Positions 739 through 63,323 of a DNA stretch of 64,000 nucleotides are shown piece after piece (the first letter of the stretch is position 1; every line of letters begins with the position of its first letter). The DNA is from a virus, in the IMG/VR virus record IMGVR_UViG_3300015360_000032, positions 16,924 through 80,923 of that record; one strand, written 5' to 3'. The notes under the pieces were generated by a model. The model saw nothing but the letters and a program-made list of their open reading frames with translations, was not told where the DNA came from and did no database searches. A program made the translations under genes and the position numbers.

Positions 739-750
739 TTGAACTTGATT

Positions 751-1098
751 TCAAAGTCCAAGGTCCGCTAGGTACTCAGCGGCGAAGAGCATGAAGAAGG
801 GATCGTAGGGGTTTTCGTAGGTTGCACAAAGCATCGTGCAAACAGTCGTGCCTGCCTGTAGGAAGACATATTTCTCGTGGGACCAGTCGAGATAGCCCTG
901 GCGATACTCATCGGTCGCGGCTTCAATCAACACGGAGCTTATCGGCCCGTACTCTAGATGCTTATCCCCTGCCGCAATACGAAAGGGCACTCGTCCCGGG
1001 TTGATCGGGCAGTAGTCTACCCAGAGGTTGCCGCTTTGGTTGAAGTATTCAGCCTTTGCCCCGCGCGCTATGGCAAACTTAACTCGATCTATCATCAT
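751..1098 (-). CDS. hypothetical protein
   Basis: 115-aa ORF with AGGGGG RBS; stop codon lies inside a palindrome copy. Confidence 0.65.
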   Translation of the reverse strand: MMIDRVKFAIARGAKAEYFNQSGNLWVDYCPINPGRVPFRIAAGDKHLEYGPISSVLIEAATDEYRQGYLDWSHEKYVFLQAGTTVCTMLCATYENPYDPFFMLFAAEYLADLGL

Positions 1099-1112
1099 GG
1101 TGTTTCCCCCTT

Positions 1113-2072
1113 TTAGAACAGTCTTGCCCCTCGAATCATCGATTCGAATTCCTCGGGCTGTAGTTCGCCCGGGTCCTTGCAGTCGGCGGGGTACTTGACC
1201 TTCATCACAGGTACGTACTTCTCGATTAGGGTTCCGGCATTCTTGACGCCCTTTTCCCCCGCCGCATCGTTGTCATAAAACAAATAAACAGGCAATCCGA
1301 AGTCTTTGAGAATTGCTGCCTGCTTCTCCGTCATTGTACTATGCATAACCGCGACTGCTGGCTGTCCACATTCCCATCCATTGGCATAGTCGAAGAGCCC
1401 TTCGACAACCAGAATCTTGTCGGGCTTCGTCTGCGCGATCAGGTGTGATCCGAGTAGGCATGCCGCTTTCTTTAGGCCGTAGTAGTCCCGTACTTTCAGT
1501 CTGGCTTGGCCCGTGACATCTCTGCCGGTGAGGCCGTACAGGTCTCCCCCCGGCCCGAAGACGGGAAACAGTATTCTCTCTGCCCCATCGGCAGGGTCGT
1601 GAGGATCAATCATCAGTTGCAGAAGCCCCGCCGTCTCATCCGAGATGCCGCGCTCGATCAGGTACGGGTGGCCTGCTGCGCTGTCGTACAAGTCCAGATA
1701 CAGTTCTCTGGCGAGGGCGTGTAGTTCGTCGTCATCCGCTCGCGGGGTATCCCAATCAGGCAAAACGCGGGGGCCAAGGTATGACTCCTCCTCGATTTCA
1801 CCTATCAAGTCTCCAAGGTCTTCCCCCGTGTAGTCGGCATACCTTTTGAGCATGGCGTGGAAGGGGGCTTTGTTGTCACATGTGAAGCAATTGAAGATGC
1901 TTGTCCCTGTCGGATTGATTGAGATACCTGCGGATTCTCTGGTGTCACGTCCATGACGGTGTTCGGCCTGCCATCTAGCTAGCGGGCACCTAATGGATAT
2001 CCATCCATTGATTTCTTTTCCACCTTCGCCAAAAACCTCCCGCAGAACTTGGTTGATACCATCTGCGTTCAT
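1113..2072 (-). CDS. DNA primase (zinc finger + TOPRIM)
   Basis: N-terminal CP...H...CFTC zinc finger, RILFPV, VVEGLFD and FYDNDAAG TOPRIM motifs. Confidence 0.9.
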   Translation of the reverse strand: MNADGINQVLREVFGEGGKEINGWISIRCPLARWQAEHRHGRDTRESAGISINPTGTSIFNCFTCDNKAPFHAMLKRYADYTGEDLGDLIGEIEEESYLGPRVLPDWDTPRADDDELHALARELYLDLYDSAAGHPYLIERGISDETAGLLQLMIDPHDPADGAERILFPVFGPGGDLYGLTGRDVTGQARLKVRDYYGLKKAACLLGSHLIAQTKPDKILVVEGLFDYANGWECGQPAVAVMHSTMTEKQAAILKDFGLPVYLFYDNDAAGEKGVKNAGTLIEKYVPVMKVKYPADCKDPGELQPEEFESMIRGARLF

Positions 2073-2075
2073 AGT

Positions 2076-2627
2076 TTACTTTGTGCGAGTCTTGATCTTG
2101 CAGCGCTCGATTTTCAATCGCTTGCCCATGAGTTGCCCTGGCGTGACATCAGCGATATCCAGTAACTCTTTCTCCGTAAGGTGCTGCCTTGCCTTGCCGA
2201 GCGCTACATCAATTGAACTCCAGAAGATTTCGTTGTTGACCTTGGCGCGGAAGCTCTTCGGGTCAACGAAGGTTTTCTGGTTGCTCCACTGCTCTACGAT
2301 CTTGGCGAGGTGTACCCCGTTCGTATGCTCAAGCAGGTTCGCATCGTTCAAGATAGCGTGGACTGTCTCAGTGGCATCATTCAGTGCTTGGGTTGCCTCG
2401 TCGATCTGGTGTTCGGCTTTTGAAATCAATTTCAATTGCTCGTCGATCCTCTTTCGTGCCGATGCTTCTTTGGCAAATTTCTGGTTTGCCCCTTCCTCCC
2501 GGGCGAGACTGGTTCGAAGCACTAGCGTCTTGGCTTTGTCTGTCCTTGCCGCTATCACTTTCTCCATTGCGGAGGTTTCTACTTTCTTCTGCCCAACTTG
2601 CGCCCTAGTACGCAGCATGACTGCCAT
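2076..2627 (-). CDS. hypothetical protein between polymerase and primase
   Basis: 183-aa ORF with AAGGAG RBS, basic and coiled-coil-like. Confidence 0.75.
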   Translation of the reverse strand: MAVMLRTRAQVGQKKVETSAMEKVIAARTDKAKTLVLRTSLAREEGANQKFAKEASARKRIDEQLKLISKAEHQIDEATQALNDATETVHAILNDANLLEHTNGVHLAKIVEQWSNQKTFVDPKSFRAKVNNEIFWSSIDVALGKARQHLTEKELLDIADVTPGQLMGKRLKIERCKIKTRTK

Positions 2628-2652
2628 GGTATGAACTCCTTTTTGTGGATTG

Positions 2653-5825: not shown

Positions 5826-7145
5826 TCACTCCCTGTAATAGTCAGAGGTTCTTCGCCCAGGGTCTGGAGACCGCCGGCCCATCCACTGAACGGTGCCCTC
5901 GGTTACTTCCCCTTCCGCCTCGCGCTCTGCAACACTCATTTCGCCCATGTCGAGCGGAGCAAATTTGAAATTGATTGCAACGCTGCCGTGTTCACCCTCT
6001 CTGCCCTTTAGAAAGTCGAACACTCTGGAGTCACGAACATTCTCTGTGGGGCCGTCTTTGAGGGCGATGACCTGAGACGAGTGGGTGCCCACCGCATCAG
6101 TGAAGCTGATGGTTTCAAGGCTTCCCTCTTTGCCCGACCGTCCCGCCTGCCGGTTAAACTGAGTGGACAGGACGAAGGGGCATCCGATGTCTAGGTTCAT
6201 GCCGCGTAGCTCATCGTAGACCGCATGGACTTTTTCTGTTCGGTTGGCGTTGCGCCCCATCTCGCTAGGGCGGAGCAAGTATACCCCATCAATGAAGATG
6301 ATATCGGGTGCGAATTCATCAGCAAGGCGAGCGATGGAATCGCACTTGGCATTCATGCCGACGCTGAATACTTTGAACCTCTCCCCGCCGATCATATCTC
6401 GGTAGACTGCGTTGATGCGCTCTCGCATGTAGGTGGAGATAGTGCCGTTCTTCAGCAATGTGGGGTTCACGCCGGTAACTAGGGCAGCGTAGCGGCGAGC
6501 CATCTGCTCGATACTCATCTCCGTGGTGACGAACAGGACATGCGCCCCGGCAAGGTGAGCGTTCTGTGCCTGCCTCAGCATCACATACGTTTTGCCGAGC
6601 CCCATTCTCCCTACCCAGGTGATCATGTCACCGTTCTGGTAGCCGCCTGTCATGTAGTCAAAAGTGGGCCAGCCGGTGGTGATGCCAGATACGCCGCCCG
6701 TTCCTTGGATTTGTCTCAGTCTGGCGGTTACGAGGTGGCCTGCCTCATTCATGTTCATTGCCTCGCCGGTCTGGCTTGCGCCCCTGCGCCGACGACGCAG
6801 CACGGACGATATCCCGGAGACCGTGTCGGCCACTAGCGCCATGTTCTTTGTTGCCAGTGCCTCCCGCAGAGGCCCGAACCGATCCCGGATCAGGTTGTAC
6901 TCGTACCGCTCGTTAACAAGGTCGATGTAGTAGGCCAGGGGTTCATTGGCAGCGGGCAGTCGAATGCCAAGCTCTTCCTGCACTGTCTGGCTGGCCGGCA
7001 ATTCTCTGTACTGTCGGAGGTGTCCTCTCACAAAGTCGTATGCTGTTATCTCCTGATCTAAAAGCATTTCTCGCTCGACCGACGACAACGCCCTGGGGGA
7101 GTTGGCAGTTAAAGCTGCTGAAATCAATTTCAAACCGTCGCTCAT
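5826..7145 (-). CDS. DnaB-like (SF4) replicative helicase
   Basis: GITTGW, Walker A GRMGLGKT, TTEM, IFIDG, STQFNR, KGREG motifs. Confidence 0.92.
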   Translation of the reverse strand: MSDGLKLISAALTANSPRALSSVEREMLLDQEITAYDFVRGHLRQYRELPASQTVQEELGIRLPAANEPLAYYIDLVNERYEYNLIRDRFGPLREALATKNMALVADTVSGISSVLRRRRRGASQTGEAMNMNEAGHLVTARLRQIQGTGGVSGITTGWPTFDYMTGGYQNGDMITWVGRMGLGKTYVMLRQAQNAHLAGAHVLFVTTEMSIEQMARRYAALVTGVNPTLLKNGTISTYMRERINAVYRDMIGGERFKVFSVGMNAKCDSIARLADEFAPDIIFIDGVYLLRPSEMGRNANRTEKVHAVYDELRGMNLDIGCPFVLSTQFNRQAGRSGKEGSLETISFTDAVGTHSSQVIALKDGPTENVRDSRVFDFLKGREGEHGSVAINFKFAPLDMGEMSVAEREAEGEVTEGTVQWMGRRSPDPGRRTSDYYRE

Positions 7146-7758: not shown

Positions 7759-9088
7759 CTAGCTCCTTGTTTGATTCTTTTACGTTGATGGTGGTTAGAG
7801 GCGTCAAGGGCGCGCGACGAGTGCGGCGCATAACCTCTAAGGTATTTCTTGATGTTTGTCTTTCCGTCGCAAGCGCGGATTCAAGCTCTGCGATCCGCTG
7901 CTGATCGCCGGTCTTCTTGCTTATGTTCAGGTTGCCCCTGCGGTTAGCGTAGGCCGCGATGAAGTAAGGCAGTCGGTAGGCCAGCGGGGAAAAGCTCGGG
8001 GCCTCAGGAAGAACACTGCCCTTCGAGTACCTGCCCGGGTCCCGTATGAAAGCCGCGCGATTTTGCAGATGAAGTATCGTCCACTCGCGGATGCAGAATT
8101 CTATGAAGTCGCGTAGGTCAGGTAGCTCGGCAGCCCGTATTCGTTTCTTCATCACGCCGAATGCTCTTTCGGTGACGATGATTCTCGGTAGCTCGGGATG
8201 ATGCACCTTCATGCATGTGTCCAGCATCGCCTGCAAATTCGCGGTGTTGATTTCTCCCGACACGGCGGCGGCGACCCGGGCAACCCGGCGAACAACACTG
8301 GCCTTGGTAGCAGACGCAATTGCCTCCATCGCTGTGTCGTGGGCGGGACCAACGGGGCGAGGTTTTTTGGGTGCTGGTAAGTTGTGCATACCTACTGAAT
8401 TTTTGGTTTGAATTTCCGCAGCTACCATCGCCGTGTCGAAGACCGGCGAAAGTAGTTGGTTAGATTTATCTAACCTGAGATTTGTATGCATTGCCGAAGG
8501 CAATACATGTATATTACATGAAGAGGTGTGAAAGTTTTTTATAGGGGGGGTCCCCGTTTTCTTGGCTGCGCGGGCCACCCTCTCCTCTACTTTCAGCCTC
8601 TTTTCTTCAATAACTTTGGCCTCAATAGCGACTAAAAGACGGAGGTTTCTCCCCTCTACATCGCATGTATTGGCTATCTTTTTGACATTGATTTCAAACA
8701 TTCTGGAGTCATTTTCAGCGCCGGAAGCCCTAGACTTTACGCAGTGAGCATGCACAATATCTGACTCTATCAGGGCCTTTAGATGCTTTCGAATAGTCGG
8801 GAGTGACAGTTGAAGTGGCTTGATAAACTGCTCATCGTCGCCCTCAATACCCTCTAAAAACTCTCGATAGGGGACTCTCTCCGCCGCTTTCCCTACCAAT
8901 ATTGTCCTGTTTGCCAGCCATAAAAGGATCGAGATGGCGGAAGGATCGAGGGTGCAGACCAATTCGCGGGCTACGACGGACAGAAAAAGAGACCCGTATT
9001 CCAGCCTCGCGGAAATAATATCTTCCTTGTCCTTGATTACAGCGGTGTATTCCCGCTGAAGGTAGGTGTAGATCATTTTTCTTCCCAC
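7691..9088 (-). CDS. putative replication initiator (N-terminal winged helix)
   Basis: LQLSLPTIRKHLKALIESDIV wHTH, low-complexity linker, upstream of loader and helicase as in lambda O-like modules. Confidence 0.6.
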   Translation of the reverse strand: MGRKMIYTYLQREYTAVIKDKEDIISARLEYGSLFLSVVARELVCTLDPSAISILLWLANRTILVGKAAERVPYREFLEGIEGDDEQFIKPLQLSLPTIRKHLKALIESDIVHAHCVKSRASGAENDSRMFEINVKKIANTCDVEGRNLRLLVAIEAKVIEEKRLKVEERVARAAKKTGTPPIKNFHTSSCNIHVLPSAMHTNLRLDKSNQLLSPVFDTAMVAAEIQTKNSVGMHNLPAPKKPRPVGPAHDTAMEAIASATKASVVRRVARVAAAVSGEINTANLQAMLDTCMKVHHPELPRIIVTERAFGVMKKRIRAAELPDLRDFIEFCIREWTILHLQNRAAFIRDPGRYSKGSVLPEAPSFSPLAYRLPYFIAAYANRRGNLNISKKTGDQQRIAELESALATERQTSRNTLEVMRRTRRAPLTPLTTINVKESNKELDDDWEPPEWQEGGTKNYAKHGR

Positions 9089-10257: not shown

Positions 10258-10608
10258 TCAGAGGGCCGGCAGGTTAGGGGTGATTCCCCGGATAAACTTC
10301 AGAGCCGCGAGCCCTTCGGTACTATTGCGCCCAACCCCCTCAAGACGACAGGCATTCAGCCAAGCTACCTCCACTTGACGAGCCCCTTCATAACTCTTAA
10401 AGCCTTCGCAGAGTTCTGGCGGGTAGCTGAGAGGAATAGCGGAATCATCGTTTGGGTAACAAAGCGACCACGTTTGAGTCTCTTCATTGAATTTGATTTC
10501 AGTCGCTCGGTGAATCTCTTGCCTACCTAGAAACCCGAGGGGAAACTTGTCGTTGTGCATGGCCTGCACCTCCCCTGCCGGAGTGAAGTCGATGACGTGT
10601 CCTACCAT
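10258..10608 (-). CDS. small protein typical of Ycf46/DUF1257/DUF2997 clusters
   Basis: VIDFTPAG...LGRQEIHRATEIKFNEETQTW...EVAWL pattern, recalled as the fourth partner of such clusters; AGGAG RBS. Confidence 0.65.
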   Translation of the reverse strand: MVGHVIDFTPAGEVQAMHNDKFPLGFLGRQEIHRATEIKFNEETQTWSLCYPNDDSAIPLSYPPELCEGFKSYEGARQVEVAWLNACRLEGVGRNSTEGLAALKFIRGITPNLPAL

Positions 10609-10632
10609 GGTATCTCTCCTTTGAAATCAATG

Positions 10633-10947
10633 TCAAAAGTTTCCGGGTTGCGCAACCGCGCGGGTGAGTGCCATCATGCCCTCTTGGAAGTGCGTCTTAG
10701 CGACGGCTATCCAGCGGGTTGGCTCGGCTTGCTGGATTCTCAAAAACTCGGCATCTTGCTCTGCGGTCAAATCCCCCTCATGCTCCGCGCCGCGAAGGGC
10801 ATCGGTAGCCTGATGCTTCAAGTGTATCTGGGCCTTCAGCAAAAGAATCGCTAGGGCGAAACCCTCTTGCTTGATTTCATTCATCAGGTTAATTTCTTCC
10901 GCGCTCAGATCACGGTACCCTTTGATCAGTCGATGTTGATTTTCCAT
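10633..10947 (-). CDS. acb2: Anti-CBASS protein Acb2 homologue (cyclic nucleotide sponge)
   Basis: MENQHRLIKGYRDLSAEEINLMNEIK and AEPTRWIAVAKTHFQEGMMALTRAVAQP closely match Pseudomonas phage Acb2 as recalled, with Y11 and K26 retained. Confidence 0.88.
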   Translation of the reverse strand: MENQHRLIKGYRDLSAEEINLMNEIKQEGFALAILLLKAQIHLKHQATDALRGAEHEGDLTAEQDAEFLRIQQAEPTRWIAVAKTHFQEGMMALTRAVAQPGNF

Positions 10948-11737: not shown

Positions 11738-11766
11738 AGTGTACTGGAAAATGAAATTGATTTCAA
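11738..11766 (-). promoter_or_regulatory. sigma70-type promoter whose -35 box lies within a palindrome copy
   Basis: Minus strand TTGAAA-N17-TACACT upstream of the DUF1257 gene. Confidence 0.6.
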
Positions 11767-14173: not shown

Positions 14174-14220
14174 CTTCAGTTTCATTGAAATCAATTTCAT
14201 TTGTGAGTTGAACGCCCAAT

Positions 14221-14765: not shown

Positions 14766-15089
14766 CTACGGAGTAGCCCGCTCCTTTTGGACTACTATTT
14801 CAAGGTAGTCAGCTAACGTGGTGTGCCGCTGGATGCATTCGGCCAAAGCCTTTGCCATGTCTGCGTAGTCTTGTAGCAGCGACCCCACCTCGTTGGCGGG
14901 CATTGCTGCCGGCAATCCTTCACATCGCTTCAACCAATCCATCTTGATGTTGGCTACTGCAACCTCAGTTTCCGACTTGAATTTAATTTCAGGCCGTACC
15001 TCGTTATGCGCGCAACCAACCAACACTGCGATTATGGCTGCGATCCCGACGCTGGCAAAGGGGCGACAAGCTGTCTGGCCTTTTTCCAT
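14766..15089 (-). CDS. o-spanin (Rz1-like lipoprotein)
   Basis: Lipobox VLVG-C, overlaps the i-spanin 3' end, ECIQRH C-terminal motif. Confidence 0.75.
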   Translation of the reverse strand: MEKGQTACRPFASVGIAAIIAVLVGCAHNEVRPEIKFKSETEVAVANIKMDWLKRCEGLPAAMPANEVGSLLQDYADMAKALAECIQRHTTLADYLEIVVQKERATP

Positions 15090-15436
15090 TCTTCATATCC
15101 CCCGGGCGGCAGTGGTTGGGCGTAAAACTCACGAACGATTTCGCGCTCTTTCGTGATGTTGTTCGTGATGGTGGTGTGTTCTATCTTGATTTTTGCAATG
15201 GATTGCAAAAGCTCTTCTCTTCTCTTCTCTGCAAGGTCGCGGTAGAACTTTGTCGAGGCGGCGTGCTTGTCTATCTCTTTCTGGATGTTTAGTACCGCCT
15301 CACTCACGGCCTGCAATTTTCTTTCCTCTTCGCCAGCGCGAGTTACGTTCCAAGTAGTATAGATTGTCAGCGCGACAAGCGCGGCGAATGCGCCTAGCTT
15401 GAGATACAGGGACCAGGGCGCTAGCCAGCTAAACAT
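15032..15436 (-). CDS. i-spanin (Rz-like)
   Basis: N-terminal TM helix followed by coiled coil, downstream of endolysin. Confidence 0.75.
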   Translation of the reverse strand: MFSWLAPWSLYLKLGAFAALVALTIYTTWNVTRAGEEERKLQAVSEAVLNIQKEIDKHAASTKFYRDLAEKRREELLQSIAKIKIEHTTITNNITKEREIVREFYAQPLPPGGYEEWKKARQLVAPLPASGSQP

Positions 15437-15817: not shown

Positions 15818-16369
15818 TTAGGTGACGCGGTGCAAAACCCAGCCAAAGATAAAATCTTCTTGTGATTGGTTCTTTTCCGCGATGTCCATATAGCGACAGG
15901 TTTGCAGGCCGTTCAAGATTCGGAGCATGACTTTTTCGCCATCGGGGTATCGATTCATGAGGAAGGTTTTCAGCGTATGCACAGTCATCTTTCCGATCTT
16001 GCCATCAACAGTAAGGTCCGGATATCTCTTGCCCTGCGCGTTGAGCGCGTTCAATGCTTTTTGCAACCAGCGGCTCGGGTGATCCGGCCCCATATTCACC
16101 CCTGTGTCGAACATCTCTTCGGCTATAGCTTCGCTGACTGTGGAGACCATCCAGAATCCCGTGGCAATCCAGTATCTCTCTTGGTAGATACTTGCCGCGA
16201 GCGTCTTTGAAATTGATTTCATATCGCCAGTGTATCCCCACGCTCTGGCAACTTGCTCTGTGATCCCATGGTTGGTCGGGCCACCGCGATCATTGGGGTG
16301 GTCTACATAGCCGCCCTCTCGGGCGATTAGATCATCAATGTACTTCTGGACTTTCGGGTTCATCATCAT
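15818..16369 (-). CDS. endolysin, glycosyl hydrolase 108 with peptidoglycan-binding domain
   Basis: REGGYVDHPNDRGGPTNHGIT, FDTGVNMG, VDGKIG, FIFGW. Confidence 0.95.
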   Translation of the reverse strand: MMMNPKVQKYIDDLIAREGGYVDHPNDRGGPTNHGITEQVARAWGYTGDMKSISKTLAASIYQERYWIATGFWMVSTVSEAIAEEMFDTGVNMGPDHPSRWLQKALNALNAQGKRYPDLTVDGKIGKMTVHTLKTFLMNRYPDGEKVMLRILNGLQTCRYMDIAEKNQSQEDFIFGWVLHRVT

Positions 16370-18645: not shown

Positions 18646-18728
18646 ATCTCAACCCTCTGGAGAGGATTACAAAGACATGGCCTGCCGCCAAGATTTGCAA
18701 TCAATTTCAAATATGTACCGTTGTCGAG

Positions 18729-21098: not shown

Positions 21099-21125
21099 AT
21101 CAGTTTCCTTAGATTGAAATCAATT

Positions 21126-21842
21126 TCAATACGATCCGATGAGGGTGGCTACGAGCCCTTTTGCGGTACCGTTACCTATCTGGGTTACGTGGATAGTGAC
21201 CCGCGAATCGTCGGCAATGGCGACATCGCTGATAACCGCAGGAGTGACAGCCGTAACACTGGTTGTTTCTGTGTTGTCGATGGTGAGCAATGTACTTAGA
21301 ACGGTTACTCCATTCTCTCTGATGTCCACAGTGAAGAGCGCGCCGCTTGCTTGCGCCGTTTGCAGAGAGATTCTAACCGCAGCCAGGGTAAATGCGCGGG
21401 GCTGGCGCCAACCCATAACTTCACCAACCTCCAATGGACTCAGATCATAGTCTGAGCAAGCTACTTGCTTTTCATAGTAGTTGGTAATGCCCAGAAGACT
21501 GGTCAGCGTCACCCAGTTAGCAGAGACGTAGGAGTAGTAGCGGGCCTCATCGACCGCGAAAACCAGCCAACCAGATTTGGGGGGAAAGAATTCCCAGATC
21601 GTACCGTTGTACCTTGCGATTTTCTTGTCATGGGTTGACCAAGACCCTGTAGCCGCTGGACCTACGATGTAGGTATCCCCCGAGGTAGGTGACCCGGGTG
21701 GCGCAGTCAAGTCCTTGTCAATCACCTTGGCTTGAGCTAGAGCGTCAACCTTTCTCAGGTTGGCGTTCATGGCATCGCCCCAGAGTGTTTCTCCAAGGAC
21801 CCAACCATGCATCAGTTCAATATTTTGAAGAGCAGCAGGCAT
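21126..21842 (-). CDS. DUF2793-domain tail protein
   Basis: DLTAPPGSPTSGDTYIVGPAATGSW...W.F.PP..GW DUF2793 signature. Confidence 0.85.
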   Translation of the reverse strand: MPAALQNIELMHGWVLGETLWGDAMNANLRKVDALAQAKVIDKDLTAPPGSPTSGDTYIVGPAATGSWSTHDKKIARYNGTIWEFFPPKSGWLVFAVDEARYYSYVSANWVTLTSLLGITNYYEKQVACSDYDLSPLEVGEVMGWRQPRAFTLAAVRISLQTAQASGALFTVDIRENGVTVLSTLLTIDNTETTSVTAVTPAVISDVAIADDSRVTIHVTQIGNGTAKGLVATLIGSY

Positions 21843-21893
21843 ATCAATTCACCTTTTCTGAAATCAATTTCAATTTAGTAGATTGTAGGACAG

Positions 21894-25123: not shown

Positions 25124-25144
25124 CGTTATTCCTTGAAATCAATT

Positions 25145-36440: not shown

Positions 36441-36462
36441 TGCTTTGAAATCAATTTCAAAG

Positions 36463-46426: not shown

Positions 46427-46525
46427 GTGGACTCCAGGCGGCGAAAACTAGGCGTGGGTAAGGTGCATTACTGCATTTTTGAAATCAATTTCAAAGCCCT
46501 AGGGTCGGGTTTACCCAAGCTACCC

Positions 46526-46962: not shown

Positions 46963-48462
46963 TTAGGATTCCTTTTGATGGGAGGTTGCGATATCAGAGC
47001 CAGTTTGAATCATGTGCCTAATGAGTCCGTCACCGTAGACGGCAAGTTCAACCTCGTCACCCAGCATCTGGACGACATCCCGAAATTCAGCCGCCTGGGA
47101 CATCATCCAAGGCGTGCATTCAAATGTGCGGCCACCGCACGTTAACGGGAACAAGGGTGCCCCGTCATTTTCTTTTTGCTCGTATGCATGATGCTTGCCA
47201 TTAGGCAACGCACAAGAATCGAAACCAAAGACATGCATGCGGTAATAGCCAAGCATGCGCAGAAGCGGAATGGCTCTCAGCACAACGGTAGAGCCGCCCG
47301 GGATGGGGTAGCAAGTACCATATTTCTCTAGAATTTTGTCGCCGTTCTCCGCATCGATGCAGGCATGCCACAGGAAGGTTCTCTCCTTCGGCAATCCCTC
47401 AAATACGCTAGGATGCGCCTGCGAGGCAATCAGGTAGCGGCAGGTGTCAACTTGCGGCTTGACGAACCGTGCATTGAATTCGCGGCCATCAATAACGACT
47501 TGAGCACTCGGGACCAAGCCCTTTTCAATTGCCCAGTTATAGGCGCCATTGCAAGTAACCAGTGCGCAACCGTCTTCCCGCAATTGGCGAATCCGATCTA
47601 GCTCGCTCTCCATGCTTGGGCCACCGGCAAGAAGAATTACTTCGCGGTCTTGTCTGTCGTACGGTTCTGCCTGCATCCAGCCGTTATTGATATTGATTTC
47701 AATATTTTTGTTTAGTTGCTCATCAGTGATATTGATCGTCCCGACTTTGCAGACATCCGCAACTTGCTTCCACGCACTGCAATAGATGTCGCAGGAAATT
47801 TCGTCTTTTTGGGTCCAATGAATAACTGCACCAAGCTCTCTAAGCTGCTCAACCCACCAAGACAAAGGCTTGACGGTCAGGTGCAGAGACTCACCAATCG
47901 TCTTGCCAAAGTGGTCGTCAATGGTGGAGATGCTGAAAAAGACATGTTCGGCGGCACCAAGAATATTGTTCAACACCTTCGACACATCATCTGTAGGGAT
48001 ATGCTCCATGACATCGCAGCAGTACCCGTAGGCCGTTGCGGTCGGAATGTTCTTTGTCAAATCTTGCTGGCGGAAGGTAATTCTTCCGCGCTGTGTCTCA
48101 CACGCTTGTGCAACTTCAGCATCGAGGCAGTTCTCGGTAAAGTCCATCATCGTGACTTTCATACCAAAAATACCGAGCATCAAAGCTTCGCGGCCTGATC
48201 CACATCCAAAACAAGTCACTTCGCTATCATGCGGGGCGCGAGCAACCTCCATAAACGTAGACGACTTTGACTCGCCGGGAGACACCTTGCGGTAGTCGGG
48301 GCCAGCCCACAATTGTTCGTACTTTTTCTTCTCGGGGTTTTCTTCGACGACTGCTACAGGCGCTACTTGCTCAATGGCGGCAACTTTAGGCTTCCAGCCG
48401 GGAATCGGCTTAATCAAAACCTTAGGTGTTTGCCCTGCCATGCCTGTGCGAACCGTTGACAT
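46963..48462 (-). CDS. SAM-dependent methyltransferase fused to Maf/DUF115-like domain
   Basis: FGCGSG and CCDVMEHIP methyltransferase motifs; LAGGPS, TCNGA, ASQAHP, GGSTV, LGY...FGFDSC...HAY Maf-like motifs. Confidence 0.8.
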   Translation of the reverse strand: MSTVRTGMAGQTPKVLIKPIPGWKPKVAAIEQVAPVAVVEENPEKKKYEQLWAGPDYRKVSPGESKSSTFMEVARAPHDSEVTCFGCGSGREALMLGIFGMKVTMMDFTENCLDAEVAQACETQRGRITFRQQDLTKNIPTATAYGYCCDVMEHIPTDDVSKVLNNILGAAEHVFFSISTIDDHFGKTIGESLHLTVKPLSWWVEQLRELGAVIHWTQKDEISCDIYCSAWKQVADVCKVGTINITDEQLNKNIEININNGWMQAEPYDRQDREVILLAGGPSMESELDRIRQLREDGCALVTCNGAYNWAIEKGLVPSAQVVIDGREFNARFVKPQVDTCRYLIASQAHPSVFEGLPKERTFLWHACIDAENGDKILEKYGTCYPIPGGSTVVLRAIPLLRMLGYYRMHVFGFDSCALPNGKHHAYEQKENDGAPLFPLTCGGRTFECTPWMMSQAAEFRDVVQMLGDEVELAVYGDGLIRHMIQTGSDIATSHQKES

Positions 48463-48514
48463 TTTTTCCTCTTACTTGCCGTTCTCAGGCAAAGTGAAAT
48501 TGATTTCAAACCCT

Positions 48515-49541: not shown

Positions 49542-50981
49542 TTAGGCCGTTGCTTTGCCGCGAAGGCCGCTGAAAGCACCACGGAAAACGTCAGTCGTCT
49601 TTTCCTTGCTTTCACCTTCTTTACTTGCCGGGGGACTGCTTTCTTGCTGTGAGCGAACCAGGGTTTGCCCCGCCAAGCTCTCCACTCTTTCGGTTACGGG
49701 CTTCATGACTTCTTCCATGATGGCCTTGATGTCCGACCGGCTCAGCGTTTCGCTGGCGGGAGCGGCCACTGCGGCGACTGCGGCGGGGGCGGCAGTAAGC
49801 TCAACCCCTGCGGGCTTGGCGGCTTCGAAAGCGGCTTTGACGCCCTCGATCACACCACTACGGATCATCTCGGTCACTTCTGCGCGAGTCAGTGGCGAAT
49901 CCGCCTTCTGAACTTCGATGGGCTTGGCTTCTGGGGTGGCCGCGCCGCTGGCTGCTGTCGTCATTAAATTCTCCTGGTTAGGTTTTGCGGATCGAACCAC
50001 CGACACCAAGAGTTGGCGCGGCAGAGAGTCCATCACTGTTCCGACGTATTCACCGAACTGCGCAAGTGCGCGGTTGGCGAGTTCTTTTCGCATGTCCAGG
50101 GATAGGCGACTCCAAATCACGATATCGAGGAGGATCGACTTCAGCATGTAGATGGAGTCTTCCATCGCAACACTAAATTCTTGATCCGCCATCGCTGCCG
50201 CGAAGTCGAGTTGCCCCCATCCCCAGTTTCCGTAGGCTGCTTCATTCACGACAGCAACGAAGCCATCAGGAATGCTTGCAACATCCGAACGAACTATGAC
50301 GGCAGTGATGCCATCTTCGAGTGCCATCTGGCGAGTTTCCTCCCCCTCTGGCACCGCGCTCCGTCTAACCACGTAGCATTCGTCAGGATTCTGCGGTTCT
50401 TCGACGGTGCCGTCAACACATTTTTCGGCAACCCATCGCTTAACGTCTTCCAAGGTGTACTTGGCCGCGTCAAAATTCATATGCGCCACTGTCAGCGCGG
50501 CTTTCTCGCCGACCGCCGGAGTGGCGTCAGCCATGCGAGCAATCGTTGCGGTCAAGCCTTCTTCGTTCAGCTTGATAGCCATCGTCGTGTCGTTTGAAAT
50601 TGATTTCAAATCTGCACGGATGGCAACGATGGTGTTTTCTGTCTTCTCGATCCGGTATCCGGAGAGACCATAGTTCTTAAGCGCAGCTTCGACAAATTCT
50701 TCGTTCGCGTCTGGCGGGAACGTAAGTTGAAGGATGGGTCCGGGCTCTTCACTGCGCTTTGTGCGGCGCAACAGTGGTGTACGCATTTTGGGAGCCCCTT
50801 CCGTGTCCGAGCGGACAATTTTGAATCCAGTTTGATTGGCGGGCAAACCCACCATACTCAGCATCTTTGGTTTGCTGATCGCCACCAGCGCGCCCTCGAC
50901 TGGCGTGGCGTCCACTACCGCTTCATCAGCCCGTTTGATCGGGCGGGGATTACGAACAAGCATCTTGGCTCTCCTTTTCAA
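49542..50981 (-). CDS. scaffold / prohead assembly protein
   Basis: Directly upstream of capsid gene; LSMVGLPANQTGF, Ala-rich C-terminus ending DVFRGAF. Confidence 0.7.
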   Translation of the reverse strand: MKRRAKMLVRNPRPIKRADEAVVDATPVEGALVAISKPKMLSMVGLPANQTGFKIVRSDTEGAPKMRTPLLRRTKRSEEPGPILQLTFPPDANEEFVEAALKNYGLSGYRIEKTENTIVAIRADLKSISNDTTMAIKLNEEGLTATIARMADATPAVGEKAALTVAHMNFDAAKYTLEDVKRWVAEKCVDGTVEEPQNPDECYVVRRSAVPEGEETRQMALEDGITAVIVRSDVASIPDGFVAVVNEAAYGNWGWGQLDFAAAMADQEFSVAMEDSIYMLKSILLDIVIWSRLSLDMRKELANRALAQFGEYVGTVMDSLPRQLLVSVVRSAKPNQENLMTTAASGAATPEAKPIEVQKADSPLTRAEVTEMIRSGVIEGVKAAFEAAKPAGVELTAAPAAVAAVAAPASETLSRSDIKAIMEEVMKPVTERVESLAGQTLVRSQQESSPPASKEGESKEKTTDVFRGAFSGLRGKATA

Positions 50982-53606: not shown

Positions 53607-53634
53607 GTGGTTTAGGGGCGGATTGAAATTGATT

Positions 53635-53838
53635 TCAAGCGGCTAAAAGATGCGGTCTTAGCTTCCAATACAAACGCCAGGAGGCCTGCGGCCTGCGCTG
53701 CCAGCGATTAAACTTCCCGATGCGCGGGGCGGGGTCCCCTACGTATCCGGGGCATGGAAAGTGTCCGCGAGCCATCCACAGCCGATCTAATGCATTTGGC
53801 TTCAACTCCTTATTGTACGTACCTACCTTGCTTGCCAT
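53635..53838 (-). CDS. hypothetical basic protein
   Basis: TAATG-coupled to the upstream gene; stop lies inside a palindrome copy. Confidence 0.55.
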   Translation of the reverse strand: MASKVGTYNKELKPNALDRLWMARGHFPCPGYVGDPAPRIGKFNRWQRRPQASWRLYWKLRPHLLAA

Positions 53839-55622: not shown

Positions 55623-56767
55623 CTCAATACTTGATCGACATCGATACAGGCAACGATAGATTGATCGCCCGCCGCCGAAAACTCCACCCCGGGTTGACCC
55701 CGCAGGGTTAACAATTCAAGGGTTGAGGATAGTTCGCGCTCTGTAGGAAGGCCGACCACAAAGGTAATCTTGTCCTTTCGCCAATCGTTGTAATCTGCGC
55801 GGAGTCTATTTACGTGGCTAACGTACCCCGCAGTAATGGGCATTCGGTTAATCAATAGATTGTCGATCATCCAATCATAGACGGTACCTGCCGCCGCGAA
55901 AGCGTCTTGCACCGAGTCGAGATTCAATGACGGTATGTTCTTGACGCCCTCTGAAATTGATTTCAAATCAAAGAGCCAATCGGAGACCATGGTGTACTTG
56001 CTCACACGCATGTGCTGGTACTGCTGGAATCCCCCTCCGTGGTATGTTGGATACCCTGCCCCGCGCCAATCGTGCGCAAGGCCGTTGTTTTGCAAGTCCG
56101 CAAAAGCTCTCGTCTTAGCTAACTGCGTAGCGTACTGGCGATAGTCAGGCTTGACCTTCCGCCTGCCAGTATACCGATTCTCATAGAACGCTTCGCGCGG
56201 GCGACCCCGCTCTACCTCGTCTGCGGATATCGCTAAACACAGGTAAGGAGACTCGCTGTAGGTAATCATCCGCGAGTATGGGATGTTCAAGTAGTCGAGG
56301 GCGTGGGCTAGTCCTATGGGGCTTCCTACGGCCGACTCAGGCGCATACAAGTCCATGATCGCGGGAAAGCCCCCTGAAACCCATCGATGTACGCAGATGT
56401 CCGCAGCCGCGCCAAGATCGAATCTATGGTGGCTTGGCTTGTCTGGGTCTTGGTACTTTACGAGCGCTTTGGATACCTGCGGGGAGATGTACCCGTAGCC
56501 TATGGACAAAGGCCCAAACTCCGCCAATATCGGCTCTAGTCCGTGTTCGCAAAGGGCTTTCACGTTGTCGAGCTTCTTGTAATAAAACTCGTCAAATTCA
56601 ACGACGTTGGCGAGCCCCCTTGAGTACACGGAATGATTCCCGAGAAAGTCGCTTAGCAGGAAATGCTTCGATAGCCAAGTACGGCACGGATGGATTTCCA
56701 TGGCAACTTCAGTGCCCGCGAGTTGATACCTGCGCGGGGAAGAGACTACTGGCAACCGCGCTGTCAC
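55613..56767 (-). CDS. peptidase M15-like protein with internally duplicated fold
   Basis: LSKHFLLSDFL...LEPIL..FG....YGY...SHH......AADI; second degenerate copy RVSKYTMVSDWL...ITAGY. Confidence 0.6.
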   Translation of the reverse strand: MTARLPVVSSPRRYQLAGTEVAMEIHPCRTWLSKHFLLSDFLGNHSVYSRGLANVVEFDEFYYKKLDNVKALCEHGLEPILAEFGPLSIGYGYISPQVSKALVKYQDPDKPSHHRFDLGAAADICVHRWVSGGFPAIMDLYAPESAVGSPIGLAHALDYLNIPYSRMITYSESPYLCLAISADEVERGRPREAFYENRYTGRRKVKPDYRQYATQLAKTRAFADLQNNGLAHDWRGAGYPTYHGGGFQQYQHMRVSKYTMVSDWLFDLKSISEGVKNIPSLNLDSVQDAFAAAGTVYDWMIDNLLINRMPITAGYVSHVNRLRADYNDWRKDKITFVVGLPTERELSSTLELLTLRGQPGVEFSAAGDQSIVACIDVDQVLRWE

Positions 56768-58724: not shown

Positions 58725-58995
58725 GGTGTCCTCTTTTGAAATTGATTTCAACTAGATTCTACGTCTGCTTTGCGTACTCTCCTATCGACACCTCCATTAG
58801 CCCTCCGTATGTCCTCGACATCAACCCCAAGCAAGGAACGCCTCAATCTTACGGGTTTTATGGGCTCTTCCGCATCAGGGTGAGTGGCCGAAAGGCTACC
58901 CGCTATCCCCCCTAGATTCGGAAAGGGGCATACGGCAGGATGGGTAACTCTGCCTGCGGGGAGACGTAGGGGGCTAACCGTATTTGACATTGATT

Positions 58996-59346
58996 TCAAA
59001 GCTGATAACGAACCGCGTAAAAGCCGATGTTTTTTGCGGGCTCGACGTAGAGGTGCAGGGTCGCGCCTACGGGCGTTTTTGCTGCCGCAGTTGCGTACTC
59101 CGTAGCCGTGCAAGACAGGCCATGGGCAATGCCGTAGTCTACCCAATGCATGACCTTGCCAGGAAAAACTGTTTGAGGATCAACGAAGCCGACAGGAACA
59201 ACTAGCTCGCCCTCAGAAATGAACTGCATTGCGCCGAACTGGCTCAACGTGAATAGATACTTTTCCACCGCGCGGAAGCTGCGCGGCCGGTAAACCGCCT
59301 TAGAGCGCTGGAAAACAGCTTCTGTCGGTATTCTTAGGTGGCTCAT
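58996..59346 (-). CDS. hypothetical protein
   Basis: 116 aa; stop inside a palindrome copy. Confidence 0.6.
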   Translation of the reverse strand: MSHLRIPTEAVFQRSKAVYRPRSFRAVEKYLFTLSQFGAMQFISEGELVVPVGFVDPQTVFPGKVMHWVDYGIAHGLSCTATEYATAAAKTPVGATLHLYVEPAKNIGFYAVRYQL

Positions 59347-60223: not shown

Positions 60224-60475
60224 TCATTTCCTCTTTGAAATCAATTTCATTTGATGGTCAATCGCGGCTCCAACATCCAAGGTATCTGCTGGAACCCAAC
60301 CCATACCTCCACAGGTCAGGGCAAGGATATAGCGCATGCCGGGTTGGCTATACCCTTTCCCGACAATAGGCCCTAGATAGATCGAGCCGCTATCGATAAG
60401 GAACCTGTACCGCGCGGCCTGAGTCTCCACGGAATCTACTTCCGCGACTGGCTTTGTTCGTTTCTTGTAAATCAT
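60224..60475 (-). CDS. hypothetical protein
   Basis: AARYRFL...AAID motif; ATGA coupling. Confidence 0.6.
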   Translation of the reverse strand: MIYKKRTKPVAEVDSVETQAARYRFLIDSGSIYLGPIVGKGYSQPGMRYILALTCGGMGWVPADTLDVGAAIDHQMKLISKRK

Positions 60476-60681
60476 GGTTTGCTCGCAAGACCGCGCCATT
60501 CGTCCCCGTCGTCATCTGCTAGCTCAACCCACATACCGTCGCTAGGGTCATGCCAGCCAAATGTATGCCCGTTAAAATACATTTTCACGATTGCGGTGTA
60601 ACACCAACCGCGAAATTCGTAATACCCCCTTCGTACCGGCTTGACGGGGTATTGAAACCAATCTGTCAGTATTTCGTCCAT
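60472..60681 (-). CDS. hypothetical protein
   Basis: GGAGG RBS; TDWF...KPVRRGYYE...WRGL motif. Confidence 0.7.
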   Translation of the reverse strand: MDEILTDWFQYPVKPVRRGYYEFRGWCYTAIVKMYFNGHTFGWHDPSDGMWVELADDDGDEWRGLASKP

Positions 60682-60703: not shown

Positions 60704-60895
60704 CTAGGGCTCAAGGTCAGTGCCCTCTATCCTGTACGCCTGAAAGTTGTCGATGAACTTGTACGTCTTCACGTTTGGGCAATCTGCGGGTAAGCAATCT
60801 TCTTTGATTGCGTACCGTGCCCTAGCCTCCTCTTCAGGAGTATCTAGGTAGCACTCGAAGCCGCTGGTGTGCCCTATTACTGTCAATGTGTGCAT
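60704..60895 (-). CDS. hypothetical protein
   Basis: 63-aa ORF in the gene run. Confidence 0.5.
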   Translation of the reverse strand: MHTLTVIGHTSGFECYLDTPEEEARARYAIKEDCLPADCPNVKTYKFIDNFQAYRIEGTDLEP

Positions 60896-61107
60896 ATTGG
60901 CTTGCCGGCGCTAATCAACTGAGCTAACGGCCCTTGCTTTACACGACTACAGTAGCGGGATACCTTTTGCGGTACTCGACCACCATTGCACAGGCCGTAG
61001 TAAGGATGCTGGCGGTACCTCGCGTACATGACTGTCTCATGAATTTGAGTAATTTTCATATCCTCTCTCATGACCCATCCACCTCCACGTAATTTGAACT
61101 TTGACAT
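60883..61107 (-). CDS. hypothetical protein
   Basis: First ORF after a putative promoter; start uncertain. Confidence 0.45.
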   Translation of the reverse strand: MSKFKLRGGGWVMREDMKITQIHETVMYARYRQHPYYGLCNGGRVPQKVSRYCSRVKQGPLAQLISAGKPICTH

Positions 61108-61226
61108 TGATTTCAAAACGAATTCAAAAATTTCCCCAGATACCAGAACGGGTCACTCTTGACTAGCTCTTGAAAGTGATGGGGGGGTGCCATGACGGAG
61201 TTCATGACTGAGTTCATGATGAGAGC

Positions 61227-62137: not shown

Positions 62138-62435
62138 GGTGAGCTTTCTAGGTGAGAGGGAAACCGGAAACCGGCCCCGGTCTATATGCATAGCCCGTGC
62201 CATGCTGTTTGACCCCGTTTTTCGTTGTTTTTATATTGAAATCGATGTCAATGTGACGTGAAACGTCATTTTGACATGACGTGAATTGTCATACATGACG
62301 CATTCTGTCTGTTACGGTGGATTTTGCTTGGCATGATCCTATCCATCCCCAATCTGGTGCATTAGCGTTCGCTGATATTCGGTTTTCGGCGCTTTTGAGC
62401 CGACCAGGTTGTTCGCGCTCGGCGTGGCCGGGGCA

Positions 62436-62672: not shown

Positions 62673-62687
62673 GTAGTCTCGGGGCGT

Positions 62688-62713
62688 AAAAAAAGCCACG
62701 TCTCAGCATGGCC
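62688..62713 (-). terminator. rho-independent terminator
   Basis: GCCATG-CTGAGA-CGTGGC followed by T7. Confidence 0.7.
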
Positions 62714-62731
62714 TTGATCAGGGGGTAGGGA

Positions 62732-62941
62732 TCAGTCGATGATGAACTTGCCTGTCCAGCCCAGGCTGATACGGTGTCCGTCGATTATCAGATCGATAAC
62801 ACTGTGATCCCGGGGGTCCGCGCTGAAACTCACGAGGGCCTTCACCTCGGTGTCTTCATACTTGCGCAGAAGCTCCCGCGCCTTGACCAGTTGCGGATCA
62901 ACACCCTCCATGACTTCACCGTGTTCGTTGCGTTCGTCCAT
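62732..62941 (-). CDS. hypothetical protein
   Basis: AAGGAG RBS. Confidence 0.65.
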   Translation of the reverse strand: MDERNEHGEVMEGVDPQLVKARELLRKYEDTEVKALVSFSADPRDHSVIDLIIDGHRISLGWTGKFIID

Positions 62942-63048
62942 GATTGCTCCTTTCAGAGACCGTTATCCATCAGGTTGCAGATCATCATGAGGGCTACGTA
63001 GACAGCGAGCCCTGTTGCTATCCATATCTGTACTTCAGTCATACCGGC

Positions 63049-63273
63049 TTACCAGCGATACCCGCATTTGTCGCGCAGGGTTTCGTACACTTCGATCTGT
63101 ACCGCTTCCGTTGCCACCATACCTTTGCGGGAGTTGCGTTGGTCGGAGAGCCAGCAATCAAAAGCGCAACCGACATGCTGTGGCAGGGTATCAGGCGCGC
63201 CCTTCAGATCGAGCATGGAGAAGGTAGCGCGCTGAACAATGCAGGCGACTTCTTGATTCACGAAGAGAGACAT
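63049..63273 (-). CDS. hypothetical protein
   Basis: AAGGAG RBS before MSLFVNQ. Confidence 0.6.
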   Translation of the reverse strand: MSLFVNQEVACIVQRATFSMLDLKGAPDTLPQHVGCAFDCWLSDQRNSRKGMVATEAVQIEVYETLRDKCGYRW

Positions 63274-63323
63274 ATCAGGACTCCTTTGAAATCGATTGCA
63301 AGGGCCGAAGCCCCTGCCGTTGT

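Follow-up and report, generated by a model that had tools for sequence, protein, structure and literature searches.

Why would a phage carry one 16-bp palindrome dozens of times, evenly spaced along its chromosome and about as often deep inside genes as between them or near their boundaries? The question is raised by a window of 64,000 nucleotides of viral DNA (IMG/VR record IMGVR_UViG_3300015360_000032, positions 16,924 to 80,923), which forms the right-hand part of an 80,923-bp contig, here called G000, that comes from a microbial-mat metagenome of 2018 and is about 85% complete. Domain searches show G000 to be a siphovirus that encodes replication and recombination proteins of its own; it has a GC content of 54%, and its minus strand carries nearly all of the genes, giving a single direction of transcription. 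An original prediction, made from the letters of the window alone, had described a genome-wide lattice of short dyads and suggested that a dimeric protein reads it. Here we report that these sites are genuine and symmetric, that they recur with even spacing across the clade, are under selection and co-evolve, and we argue from sequence that they are probably docking sites on duplex DNA for one phage-encoded, sequence-specific dimeric protein, predicted to act chromosome-wide.

An evenly spaced dyad in the G000 chromosome

The repeated element is the dyad TTGAAAT-YR-ATTTCAA, 16 bp in a 7-2-7 layout, which we scored as the pattern TTGAAATYRATTTCAA. Between window positions 739 and 63301 there are 8 exact copies and 36 with at most two mismatches, compared with 0.00-0.01 in dinucleotide shuffles; if the centre is left free the number becomes 37, the additional copy being the one at 15193, in which both arms read TTGCAAT. 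The remaining 17 kb of the contig, to the left of the window, is also populated, and the whole contig holds 47 copies. Gaps in the window average 1.77 kb and reach 4,573 bp at most, so the lattice stands much as it was first described, with about 35 copies recurring about every 1.8 kb and a largest gap of about 4.5 kb. The evenness of the spacing likewise bears out: the coefficient of variation (CV) of the gaps in G000 is 0.58, against 0.97+-0.13 for random placement (p<0.0002) and 0.98 under a null that retains the preference of the sites for gene junctions (p<0.0002).

In transcriptional orientation, the contig sites have CA (~21), TG (~18), CG (4) or TA (2) at the centre. Since CA and TG occur at similar frequency on the sole transcribed strand, the motif is a true dyad with no preferred orientation or strand bias. 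The departures from the consensus that had been noted at symmetric positions, one-arm variants reading TTGACAT (6 times) or TTGCAAT (~11 arms), do recur, and at the level of base pairing they are mostly uncompensated, with 38 of the 44 variant arm pairs broken, 3 restored as wobbles and 3 compensated.

Of the 37 window copies, about 19 are intergenic or no more than ~15 nt from either end of a gene, and the other 18 or so are well inside genes, close to the even split originally proposed. Gene junctions are enriched for sites 3-4 fold, and sites are also found beside terminators. At eight junctions of the contig, of which the window contains six, the TTGA of the motif provides the TGA stop codon of the upstream gene, and in most of these a Shine-Dalgarno sequence (SD) and a start codon follow 0-15 nt downstream. 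The copies inside genes are accommodated as peptides, among them LKLISK (site 2420) and LKSIS (site 50594), as had been read from the translations. With synonymous codons shuffled within each gene, so that the proteins are unchanged, 0.65+-0.74 intragenic sites with at most one mismatch are obtained, and 0.06 when the order of codons is shuffled, against the 21 that are present; the codon-preserving control suggested with the original prediction thus comes out in favor of enrichment, and it follows that codon choice and amino-acid sequence are both bent toward the word.

The lattice in related phages

No cultured phage matches G000 by blastn, and its relatives were found through protein searches. 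The closest cultured ones are the Pseudomonas aeruginosa phages SM1, PaMx31, PA_L9, UF_RH6 and BHU-1 (62% identity in the capsid protein and 56% in the DNA polymerase PolA); more distant are the Stenotrophomonas phages DLP5 and Summit (capsid 49% identity) and the Agrobacterium phage JP1 (PolA 38% identity), so that the cultured hosts of the clade are P. aeruginosa, S. maltophilia (DLP3, DLP5 and Summit) and A. tumefaciens (JP1). Among the uncultured relatives, G060 (99 kb) is complete, and G005 (102 kb) and G059 (104 kb) both have terminal repeats.

A 7-2-7 dyad lattice is present in every relative examined (G059, G060, G005, G461, SM1, DLP5, JP1, G003 and L121), each lineage spelling it in its own dialect. 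The form found in G000, TTGAAAT-YR-ATTTCAA, is shared with G003 and L121, the latter having a capsid protein 74% identical to that of G000. The word is TTGCAAT-CG-ATTGCAA in G060 and G005, with A-type arms mixed in in G005; GTGCAAT-CA/TG-ATTGCAC in G059; NTGCAAT-CA/TG-ATTGCAN in DLP5 (35 sites); TTGCAAA-CG-TTTGCAA in JP1 (49 sites); and TGMAAT-TA-ATTKCA in G461 (23 sites). SM1 has GTGCAA-RCGY-TTGCAC, with 34 sites against 2.7 in shuffles, and the lattice word of its dialect is GTGCAAGCGCTTGCAC, DLP5 and JP1 having other dialects. The YR central step is common to all of them, and at arm position 4 a further 45 members of the clade form a continuum from nearly pure A to nearly pure C. The trait is bounded by more remote relatives with capsid proteins of 27-33% identity (L132-L144), in which no lattice was found.

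Spacing is kept along with the word. The gap CV is 0.60 in G059, 0.40 in G060, 0.65 in G005, 0.60 in SM1, 0.46 in DLP5 and 0.63 in JP1 (each p<=0.001), and 0.56 in G003, with p ranging from <0.0002 to 0.024 over eight genomes. When 265 gaps were pooled, each normalized by the mean of its own genome, only 12 were shorter than 0.2 times the mean where 48 were expected, 3 were longer than 2.5 times the mean (21.8 expected) and 1 was longer than 3 times (13.2 expected). Close pairs of sites are avoided and voids are capped.

Individual positions can be compared by mapping sites between genomes through protein alignments. Of 162 mappable sites, 37 have a counterpart at the orthologous position, compared with 3.8 expected; G059 and SM1 share 9 of 18, and G060 and G005 share 10 of 18. 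G000, which has the purest A-type arms among the compared genomes, shares only 5 of 77 positions with G059, G060, G005 and SM1, and because of this low number it may be that its lattice was largely rewritten after a change of dialect. The process is illustrated by a 183-aa gene in which the same codons carry a site in three genomes, TTGCAATCGATTGCA in G060 (peptide LQSIA), ATGCAATCAATTGCA in G059 (MQSIA) and TTGAAATTGATTTCA in G000 (LKLIS); the SM1 gene has no site at these codons, and its peptide is LQLIA. Similarly, four lineages have a site at the same codons of a 465-aa gene, each in its own version, and in a gene that follows the major tail gene the motif starts at the ATG, so that the protein begins with MQTLAP in SM1 and with MQSIAP in G059. 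Taken together, the codon-shuffle excess, the shared orthologous sites and the peptides that follow their lineage argue that the intragenic copies are under selection, and that at shared positions the peptide follows the DNA word of the lineage. Conservation of copies in relatives, named originally as a further check, is seen at about a quarter of the mappable sites.

Probable docking sites for a dimeric protein

A symmetric and conserved duplex site, half-site variants that are not compensated, and dialects that drift in concert point to a dimeric, sequence-specific protein as the reader of the dyads. Since phages of Pseudomonas, Stenotrophomonas and Agrobacterium have all retained the lattice, that protein would be encoded by the phage and not by its hosts. 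The symmetry, the number and even spacing of the sites and their occurrence in all relatives also favor the earlier suggestion that such a site would serve something beyond promoter control, a role that we continue to regard as predicted. The alternative that the copies are decoys for a host regulator is not supported, as phages of three host genera in two classes have the lattice in common and no enrichment was seen in 400 sampled Gammaproteobacteria.

It can be hypothesized that the protein coats, organizes, marks or globally silences the phage chromosome, and that it does not act on single promoters. Each site would serve a territory of roughly 1-3 kb, and selection would maintain the copy number and cap the gaps: a site would go into an intergenic spacer if one is available and into coding sequence if not. 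When the specificity of the reader drifted, the sites would drift along with it and give rise to the dialects of the lineages. Number and spacing persist even though individual positions turn over, very short and very long gaps are both underrepresented, and placement appears to follow the rule of spacer first and coding sequence otherwise; for these reasons, what seems to be required is that every part of the chromosome be within roughly 1-3 kb of a site.

Several other explanations were tried and rejected. A promoter can be set aside, as there is no conserved -10 element downstream of the TTGAAA or TTGACA arm and sigma-70-like hits at the sites number 7 compared with 13.3 in shuffled sequence. 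A mobile element does not fit copies that are bare 16-mers lying in frame within conserved genes. A word of the host genome, such as an uptake sequence, Chi or a HIP-like element, is not apparent in 400 sampled Gammaproteobacteria, which have 0-6 copies, the true host being unidentified.

Candidate readers

Two protein families, one MerR-type and the other with ParB_N domains, are encoded in every lattice-bearing genome examined. The MerR-type protein is a winged helix-turn-helix (HTH) protein of ~170 aa, located in G000 at contig 13857-14399 (-), ~2.5 kb to the left of the window. Its gene comes directly after that of the superfamily 2 (SF2) helicase, overlapping the 3' end of the latter in another frame, and precedes RecA/UvsX, an arrangement kept in six of seven lineages. 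Members are detectable in G000, G059, G060, G005, SM1, DLP5, G461 and JP1, where the sole detectable one (JP1_076, annotated 'MerR-like') follows a RuvC-like gene. In independent gene calls the proteins are 160-194 aa long with HTH_17/MerR_1 domains, the DLP5 member (gp059) matching MerR_1 at 3e-6. With only 11 homologues in 5.8 billion proteins, the family is by homology restricted to the clade, which is the same range as that of the lattice. An AlphaFold2 model has the HTH and wing at pLDDT >90 followed by two long C-terminal helices, the layout of the MerR family (an N-terminal winged HTH and then dimerization helices), and its best matches in the PDB are DNA-bound BmrR, HiNmlR, MtaN, CueR, CadR and RacA (probability 0.9-1.0, E 0.03-0.3). 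We regard this protein as a candidate reader with a real, if less than even, chance of being the right one. As an aside on annotation, the MerR-like open reading frame (ORF) of SM1 spans 39853-40362 and has 169 codons, of which gp044 of the record covers the last 62 only.

The second family is found near the terminase genes. A 231-aa ParB_N protein (contig 7962-8657, minus strand; SM1 counterpart gp051) stands next to a 507-aa protein (contig 6433-7956, minus strand) in which two ParB_N-like segments are fused to Methyltransf_23, and which is the most conserved protein of the group. At 50-62% identity both are among the most conserved genes, and in both ParB_N scores above the Pfam cut-off; ParB-like homologues number more than 500. 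The fold modeled for the 231-aa protein matches Noc, ParB-CDP and KorB (E 1e-6 to 1e-4), and the GERRxRA nucleotide box is degenerate (GHTRTEA / GHQRTRV). Together the two proteins may be the reader, a possibility that we hold to be open to considerable doubt; what remains of the probability falls to some other protein. The cassette beside the terminase genes as a whole occupies contig 6433-10074 (-) and 1150-2735 (-) and further encodes a 441-aa protein with an Ala/Lys/Pro-rich, histone-H1-like linker, a second protein with an S-adenosylmethionine-dependent methyltransferase fold and an HTH-containing putative small terminase.

If the ParB_N proteins are the readers, a specific version of the docking lattice suggests itself, in which the ParB_N protein or the ParB_N-methyltransferase would load at the dyads as a clamp of the ParB/KorB/Noc type and slide or spread over 1-2 kb, with the outcome that the whole phage DNA is coated, or that a tethered transferase modifies phage DNA only. 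A 16-bp palindrome in the 7-2-7 geometry is like parS and sopC sites, the capped gaps would suit a limited spreading distance, and the genes and folds that the version calls for are those just described. The DNA of DLP5 and DLP3 is heavily modified by a chemistry that is unidentified, and DLP5 is a phagemid (PMC5834331, PMC7326821); DLP3 DNA resisted 15 of 15 enzymes (PMC7326821). Moreover, fusions of a ParB-CTPase fold with Methyltransf_23 are enriched in phages and uncharacterized (PMC12704722). Nevertheless we consider the clamp version rather unlikely, for reasons that are best taken together with those that bear on the candidates generally.

These points weigh against the docking lattice as we have outlined it, and against its candidate readers in particular. 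The ParB_N domain of the 231-aa protein recurs widely in phages that lack a lattice, being common in phages generally as the N-terminus of DNA methylases, and no lattice is present in outgroup phages whose ParB_N domain is 50% identical. No ParA (PF13614, PF01656) was found in the 81-kb, 85%-complete contig, while control searches were positive in 14 of 14 genomes; nor does the contig contain the canonical ParB HTH (PF17762, HTH_ParB). Profile A2 barely reaches DLP5 and misses JP1. As to the MerR-like protein, the members in DLP5, G461 and JP1 match it only weakly (E 6e-4 to 6e-3), the JP1 gene sits elsewhere in the genome, and the classical MerR operator, which lies in a long sigma-70 spacer, finds no counterpart here, the sites having no -10/-35 partner and falling short of shuffled sequence in promoter-like hits, as given above. 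Neither candidate gene has a consistent site just upstream. Many columns of the candidate proteins do separate the dialect groups, but the groups are at the same time clades. Finally, the chromosome-wide purpose is itself something we infer from the spacing. Three winged-HTH candidates named in the original prediction (window 9613-9927, 130-738 and 7691-9088) drop out, since none gave a Pfam or PHROG DNA-binding hit and the first is not conserved in relatives.

Other explanations of the lattice

A different use of a bound protein would be silencing of the kind known from stoperators, where a repressor distributed along the one-directional 100-kb transcription unit would block elongating RNA polymerase and keep a phagemid prophage quiet. 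The genes of G000 do lie nearly all on one strand, and the sites are enriched 3-4 fold at junctions and occur beside terminators as well; DLP5 is temperate as a phagemid (PMC5834331), and the stoperators of Cluster A offer a precedent (PMC6550527, PMC4351075). However, unlike stoperators the sites are symmetric and have no orientation, many are deep in genes, UF_RH6, a relative of the SM1 type, has been described as lytic (PMC10281142), and no repressor or integrase module was identified in G000. Silencing of this type is improbable.

It is quite improbable, too, that the dyads are sites of replication or recombination, recruiting the primosome or a helicase or marking points of recombination or fork restart at Okazaki-like intervals on either strand. 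The clade-restricted MerR-like gene does belong to a replication-recombination module (SF2 helicase, RecA/UvsX, two resolvases and an exonuclease), and a spacing of 1.8-3 kb is close to the length of bacterial Okazaki fragments. Against this, no primase or helicase loader is known to rely on 16-bp duplex palindromes at such a density, no strand or skew signal was seen at the sites in G000, and the proposal is purely inferential.

A host origin of the word deserves discussion because an identical 16-mer is abundant in two bacterial metagenome-assembled genomes (MAGs), and the phage itself came from a microbial mat. The 16-mer could then be a host site, either of the repetitive extragenic palindrome (REP) or REPIN type or for a host factor, that the phage mimicked or acquired. 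The two MAGs are G001 ('Gammaproteobacteria bacterium CSMAG_1672'), with 313 copies, and G002 ('Thiotrichaceae bacterium GMC7.concoct.148'), with 279, compared with 2 in the control; the GenBank title names Thiotrichaceae for G002 and only Gammaproteobacteria for G001, and both are of one family. In them the phage 16-mer is the exact hairpin apex of a ~140-bp repeat present in ~300 copies and laid out as gtaactactcagcc-16mer-ggctgaaagctaaag..., with an inverted partner 70-130 bp away, and in a minor family of the repeat both arms are changed (TTGAGAT..ATCTCAA). The repeat loci that we recorded are L265-L284, L150, L164, L192 and L216 in G001 and L205 and L218 in G002. Of 54 MAG copies, 49 are intergenic and the flanks are conserved, as expected of a REP, REPIN or miniature inverted-repeat transposable element; the phage copies, by contrast, are bare 16-mers without conserved flanks and often lie within genes. 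Further, 53 of 55 genomes of the same family have 0-16 copies, only the two MAGs with the repeat burst being enriched, 400 other Gammaproteobacteria have 0-6, and related phages of other hosts have the lattice in dialects of their own. The identity of the two words is probably a coincidence, given the GC content of the MAGs (36-39% against 54% in the phage), the low numbers in the other genomes of the family and the mere ~16 bits of a 7-bp arm, for which one chance match among the repeat families of ~200,000 genomes is plausible. A host-related element is accordingly very improbable.

Least probable of all is an element acting in RNA or as a structure (an mRNA processing, stability or termination hairpin, or a cruciform), for although several copies are found next to terminators or in the stretch from a stop codon to the following SD, the G000 hairpin is worth just -1.3 kcal/mol, the variant pairs are for the most part broken as given above, there is no U tract, both orientations of the centre occur on the one transcribed strand, and no Rfam family was found at three of the bacterial MAG repeat loci, a search that did not extend to the phage window itself; an RNA hairpin or terminator was rejected on the grounds of the weak fold, the uncompensated variants and the missing U tract.

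The sites along the window

The copies in the window are described here in window coordinates; each is strand-symmetric, and mismatches are given in brackets. At junctions, the site commonly supplies the end of one gene and leads into the next. At 739..754 (1 mismatch) the left arm contains the TGA of the upstream gene, and the site is followed directly by the ATG of gene 130-738; at 10621..10636 (1 mismatch) the arm holds the TGA of an Acb2-like gene, with AGGAG and an ATG at +12 nt; at 21114..21129 (exact) a TGA stop in the arm is followed by an SD and an ATG 15 nt downstream; and at 25133..25148 (exact) a TGA stop in the arm has an ATG 9 nt downstream. The site at 7118..7133 (1 mismatch), also at a junction, is 12 nt within the annotated 5' end of the DnaB-like helicase ORF, and that at 58736..58751 (exact) has an SD (AAGAGGA) and an ATG within 11 nt. 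An ATG 15 nt downstream accompanies the intergenic site 21858..21873 (1 mismatch). The final codons of the 1287-aa tail gene form the site 26011..26026 (2 mismatches), with the next ATG 11 nt downstream, and the 3' end of gene 60224-60499 forms 60235..60250 (1 mismatch), with an SD and an ATG 12 nt downstream. The site 61101..61116 (1 mismatch) is at or just before the start of the small ORF 60883-61116, and AGGAG and the ATG of another small ORF come directly after 63286..63301 (1 mismatch).

Other copies lie in intergenic spacers: 11751..11766 (1 mismatch) between genes 11770-12381 and 11257-11703, 14185..14200 (1 mismatch) upstream of the AAA+ ATPase gene, 18695..18710 (1 mismatch) between 18771-20039 and 17887-18645, 36445..36460 (exact) 2 nt past the stop of the major tail gene 36463-37248, 46479..46494 (exact) between 46526-46960 and 44129-46426, and 62236..62251 (1 mismatch) upstream of gene 61661-62203. 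The site 48494..48509 (1 mismatch) comes after the capsid gene and a terminator-like hairpin (48538-48521), and L121, the closest relative, has a site at about the same post-capsid offset, as judged by distance and not by alignment. At 53623..53638 (exact), intergenic and with the upstream TGA in its arm, the site is 16 nt before the strongest minus-strand terminator (53606-53584). A lattice site directly before an intrinsic terminator hairpin is also seen at SM1 71560, 74625 and 88851, at L122 5858 and at L126 5943, and in G000 (window 53623-53584), G059, G060 and SM1 such a pair precedes the HNH-endonuclease and portal genes. By protein mapping the pairs coincide only between G059 (L122 5858) and G060 (L126 5943); the G000 pair at 53623 matches these two by distance from the capsid gene, and the SM1 site is 38 nt off in the mapping.

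The remaining copies are inside genes. Toward the left of the window they are 2420..2435 (exact) in the 183-aa gene 2076-2627, which encodes LKLISK and has orthologous sites in G059 and G060 (MQSIA and LQSIA); 5965..5980 (1 mismatch, a TTGCAAT arm) in the DnaB-like helicase gene 5826-7145; 8682..8697 (1 mismatch, a TTGACAT arm) in the 465-aa gene 7691-9088; 10487..10502 (2 mismatches) in gene 10258-10608; 14977..14992 (2 mismatches) in gene 14766-15089; and 16207..16222 (1 mismatch) in gene 15818-16369. The variant at 15193..15208, TTGCAAT-GG-ATTGCAA on the plus strand and hence with a CC centre in the direction of transcription, lies in gene 15032-15436; both of its arms are C-type and its centre is not YR. 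The gene of the 1287-aa tail protein contains 27243..27258 (1 mismatch), and the tape measure gene 29856-35261 contains 31558..31573 (2 mismatches), 31775..31790 (1 mismatch) and 33920..33935 (1 mismatch). Further on are 38629..38644 (1 mismatch) in gene 38274-38942, 40753..40768 (1 mismatch) and 41906..41921 (2 mismatches) in the 872-aa gene 39720-42338, 47687..47702 (1 mismatch) in gene 46963-48462, 55951..55966 (1 mismatch) in the endolysin gene 55613-56767, and 58984..58999 (1 mismatch, a TTGACAT arm) in gene 58748-59146. The exact copy at 50594..50609, encoding LKSIS in the scaffold-like gene 49542-50981, has counterparts at the orthologous position in G059 and SM1, written in their respective dialects; in L121 a site falls at a similar distance from its capsid gene.

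Other genes of the phage

The replication and recombination set of G000 consists of PolA, a DnaB-like helicase, a primase, the SF2 helicase, RecA, two resolvases and an exonuclease, and its structural genes include those for an 1801-aa tape measure, a portal, a protease and the capsid. PolA (window 2653-5583, minus strand) is a family A polymerase with an N-terminal domain of the uracil-DNA-glycosylase superfamily and a 3'-5' exonuclease domain, and it is kept in SM1 and the remaining relatives. A 104-aa protein (window 10633-10947, minus strand) has an Acb2/Tad1 hairpin domain (PF24729, E 3e-15) and is likely, by its predicted domain, a nucleotide sponge directed against CBASS or Thoeris. A tRNA-Arg with anticodon TCT (window 11169-11245, minus strand) lies within the block of AAA+ ATPase and DUF1257 genes. 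The 765-aa protein at window 44129-46426 (-) has three DUF285 (BspA-type leucine-rich repeat) stretches; because most relatives have no homologue of it, its gene is probably a host-recognition cassette. Finally, a 148-aa protein (window 57151-57597, minus strand) matches DNA ligases in their N-terminal Ia domain alone, the one that binds NAD+ (PF22745, E 5e-10).

What the lattice may mean

The clade spends 35-50 sites, and many substitutions in conserved proteins such as the helicase, tape measure, scaffold and endolysin, on one word, and it keeps the even spacing across genera whose homologous proteins agree at only about a third to a half of their residues. This cost, together with the spacing that is kept, implies a function of importance to the whole chromosome, which may connect with the heavily modified DNA of the group and with lysogeny as a phagemid. 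The boldest interpretation, which we think unlikely, is that a large and widespread group of ~100-kb phages has an undescribed chromosome-wide system in which a protein covers or marks the DNA of the phage and none of that of the host. If true, one form of it would be a sliding clamp of the ParB fold, with a fused transferase that installs the heavy DNA modification of DLP3 and DLP5, and another would be a MerR-type architectural protein that organizes the replicating chromosome; either would be a new viral way of telling self DNA from host DNA. Members in tractable hosts have been cultured, namely SM1, PaMx31, PA_L9, UF_RH6, DLP3, DLP5, Summit and JP1.

Comparison with known systems

RacA of Bacillus subtilis (structure 5I44) is a MerR-type winged-HTH protein that binds many ram palindromes and organizes or anchors the chromosome. 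It is among the best structural matches of the phage MerR-like model; however, it is a cellular sporulation protein whose sites cluster near the origin, and the fold match is weak (E 0.04). Within the clade itself, the papers on DLP3 and DLP5 make no mention of the dyad, and 'palindrom' occurs 0 times in that on DLP3 (PMC7326821). As far as the literature is searchable, the lattice has not been described for the clade, and the word was found in none of the papers searched, in keeping with the earlier remark that it is not a recognized box.

The stoperators of Cluster A mycobacteriophages, roughly 25-35 of them genome-wide and often at junctions, are 13-mers that lack symmetry and point along the direction of transcription; their variants are lineage-specific and co-evolve with the repressor, and some of the phages are extrachromosomal prophages (PMC6550527). 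The lattice resembles them in its genome-wide spread, its junction sites and its co-evolving dialects, and differs in that its sites are symmetric 16-mers without orientation, about half of them deep in genes.

In the KorB-OB, ParB-parS and Noc-NBS systems, palindromic sites of 13-16 bp are scattered, some of them far from promoters or within genes, and their dimeric readers with the ParB-CTPase fold can slide off the site, as in the case of KorB and its 12 OB operators on the IncP plasmid RK2 (PMC11790492). A palindromic 16-bp site in many copies (47) and, possibly, the fold of the ParB_N proteins are points in common, whereas the phage has no ParA, no canonical ParB HTH and only a degenerate CTP box, and its sites are evenly spaced at a density 3-5 times higher.

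The closest described system is that of the Cluster O mycobacteriophages, represented by Corndog, in which a 17-bp dyad, TGTTCGG-NNN-CCGAACA, is present in 34 copies (Cresawn et al. 2015, PMC4351075). No function is known for it; a dimeric binder acting outside transcription initiation was predicted in that study (PMC4351075). Both are short dyads with 7-bp arms in more than 30 copies, spread across a siphovirus genome that also encodes proteins with ParB-like domains, lying in intergenic and coding sequence alike and without orientation, and with 47 copies in 81 kb of G000 the present lattice falls well within that description of at least 30 copies of a 16-17-bp dyad. The phages and the motifs are unrelated, however, the layout being 7-3-7 in Corndog and 7-2-7 here, and the Corndog ORFs have no match to either candidate-reader profile (A1, A2). 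The 37 sites that we placed in Corndog have a gap CV of 0.93 (P=0.44) and are denser at the right end, and are thus not evenly spaced, in contrast to a CV of 0.40-0.65 in every member of the present clade. Unlike the Cluster O dyads, moreover, the lattice described here spans several genera and host classes, has dialects that co-evolve and runs its sites through conserved proteins, and the clade thereby offers a much larger comparative data set for the puzzle long posed by the Cluster O dyads.

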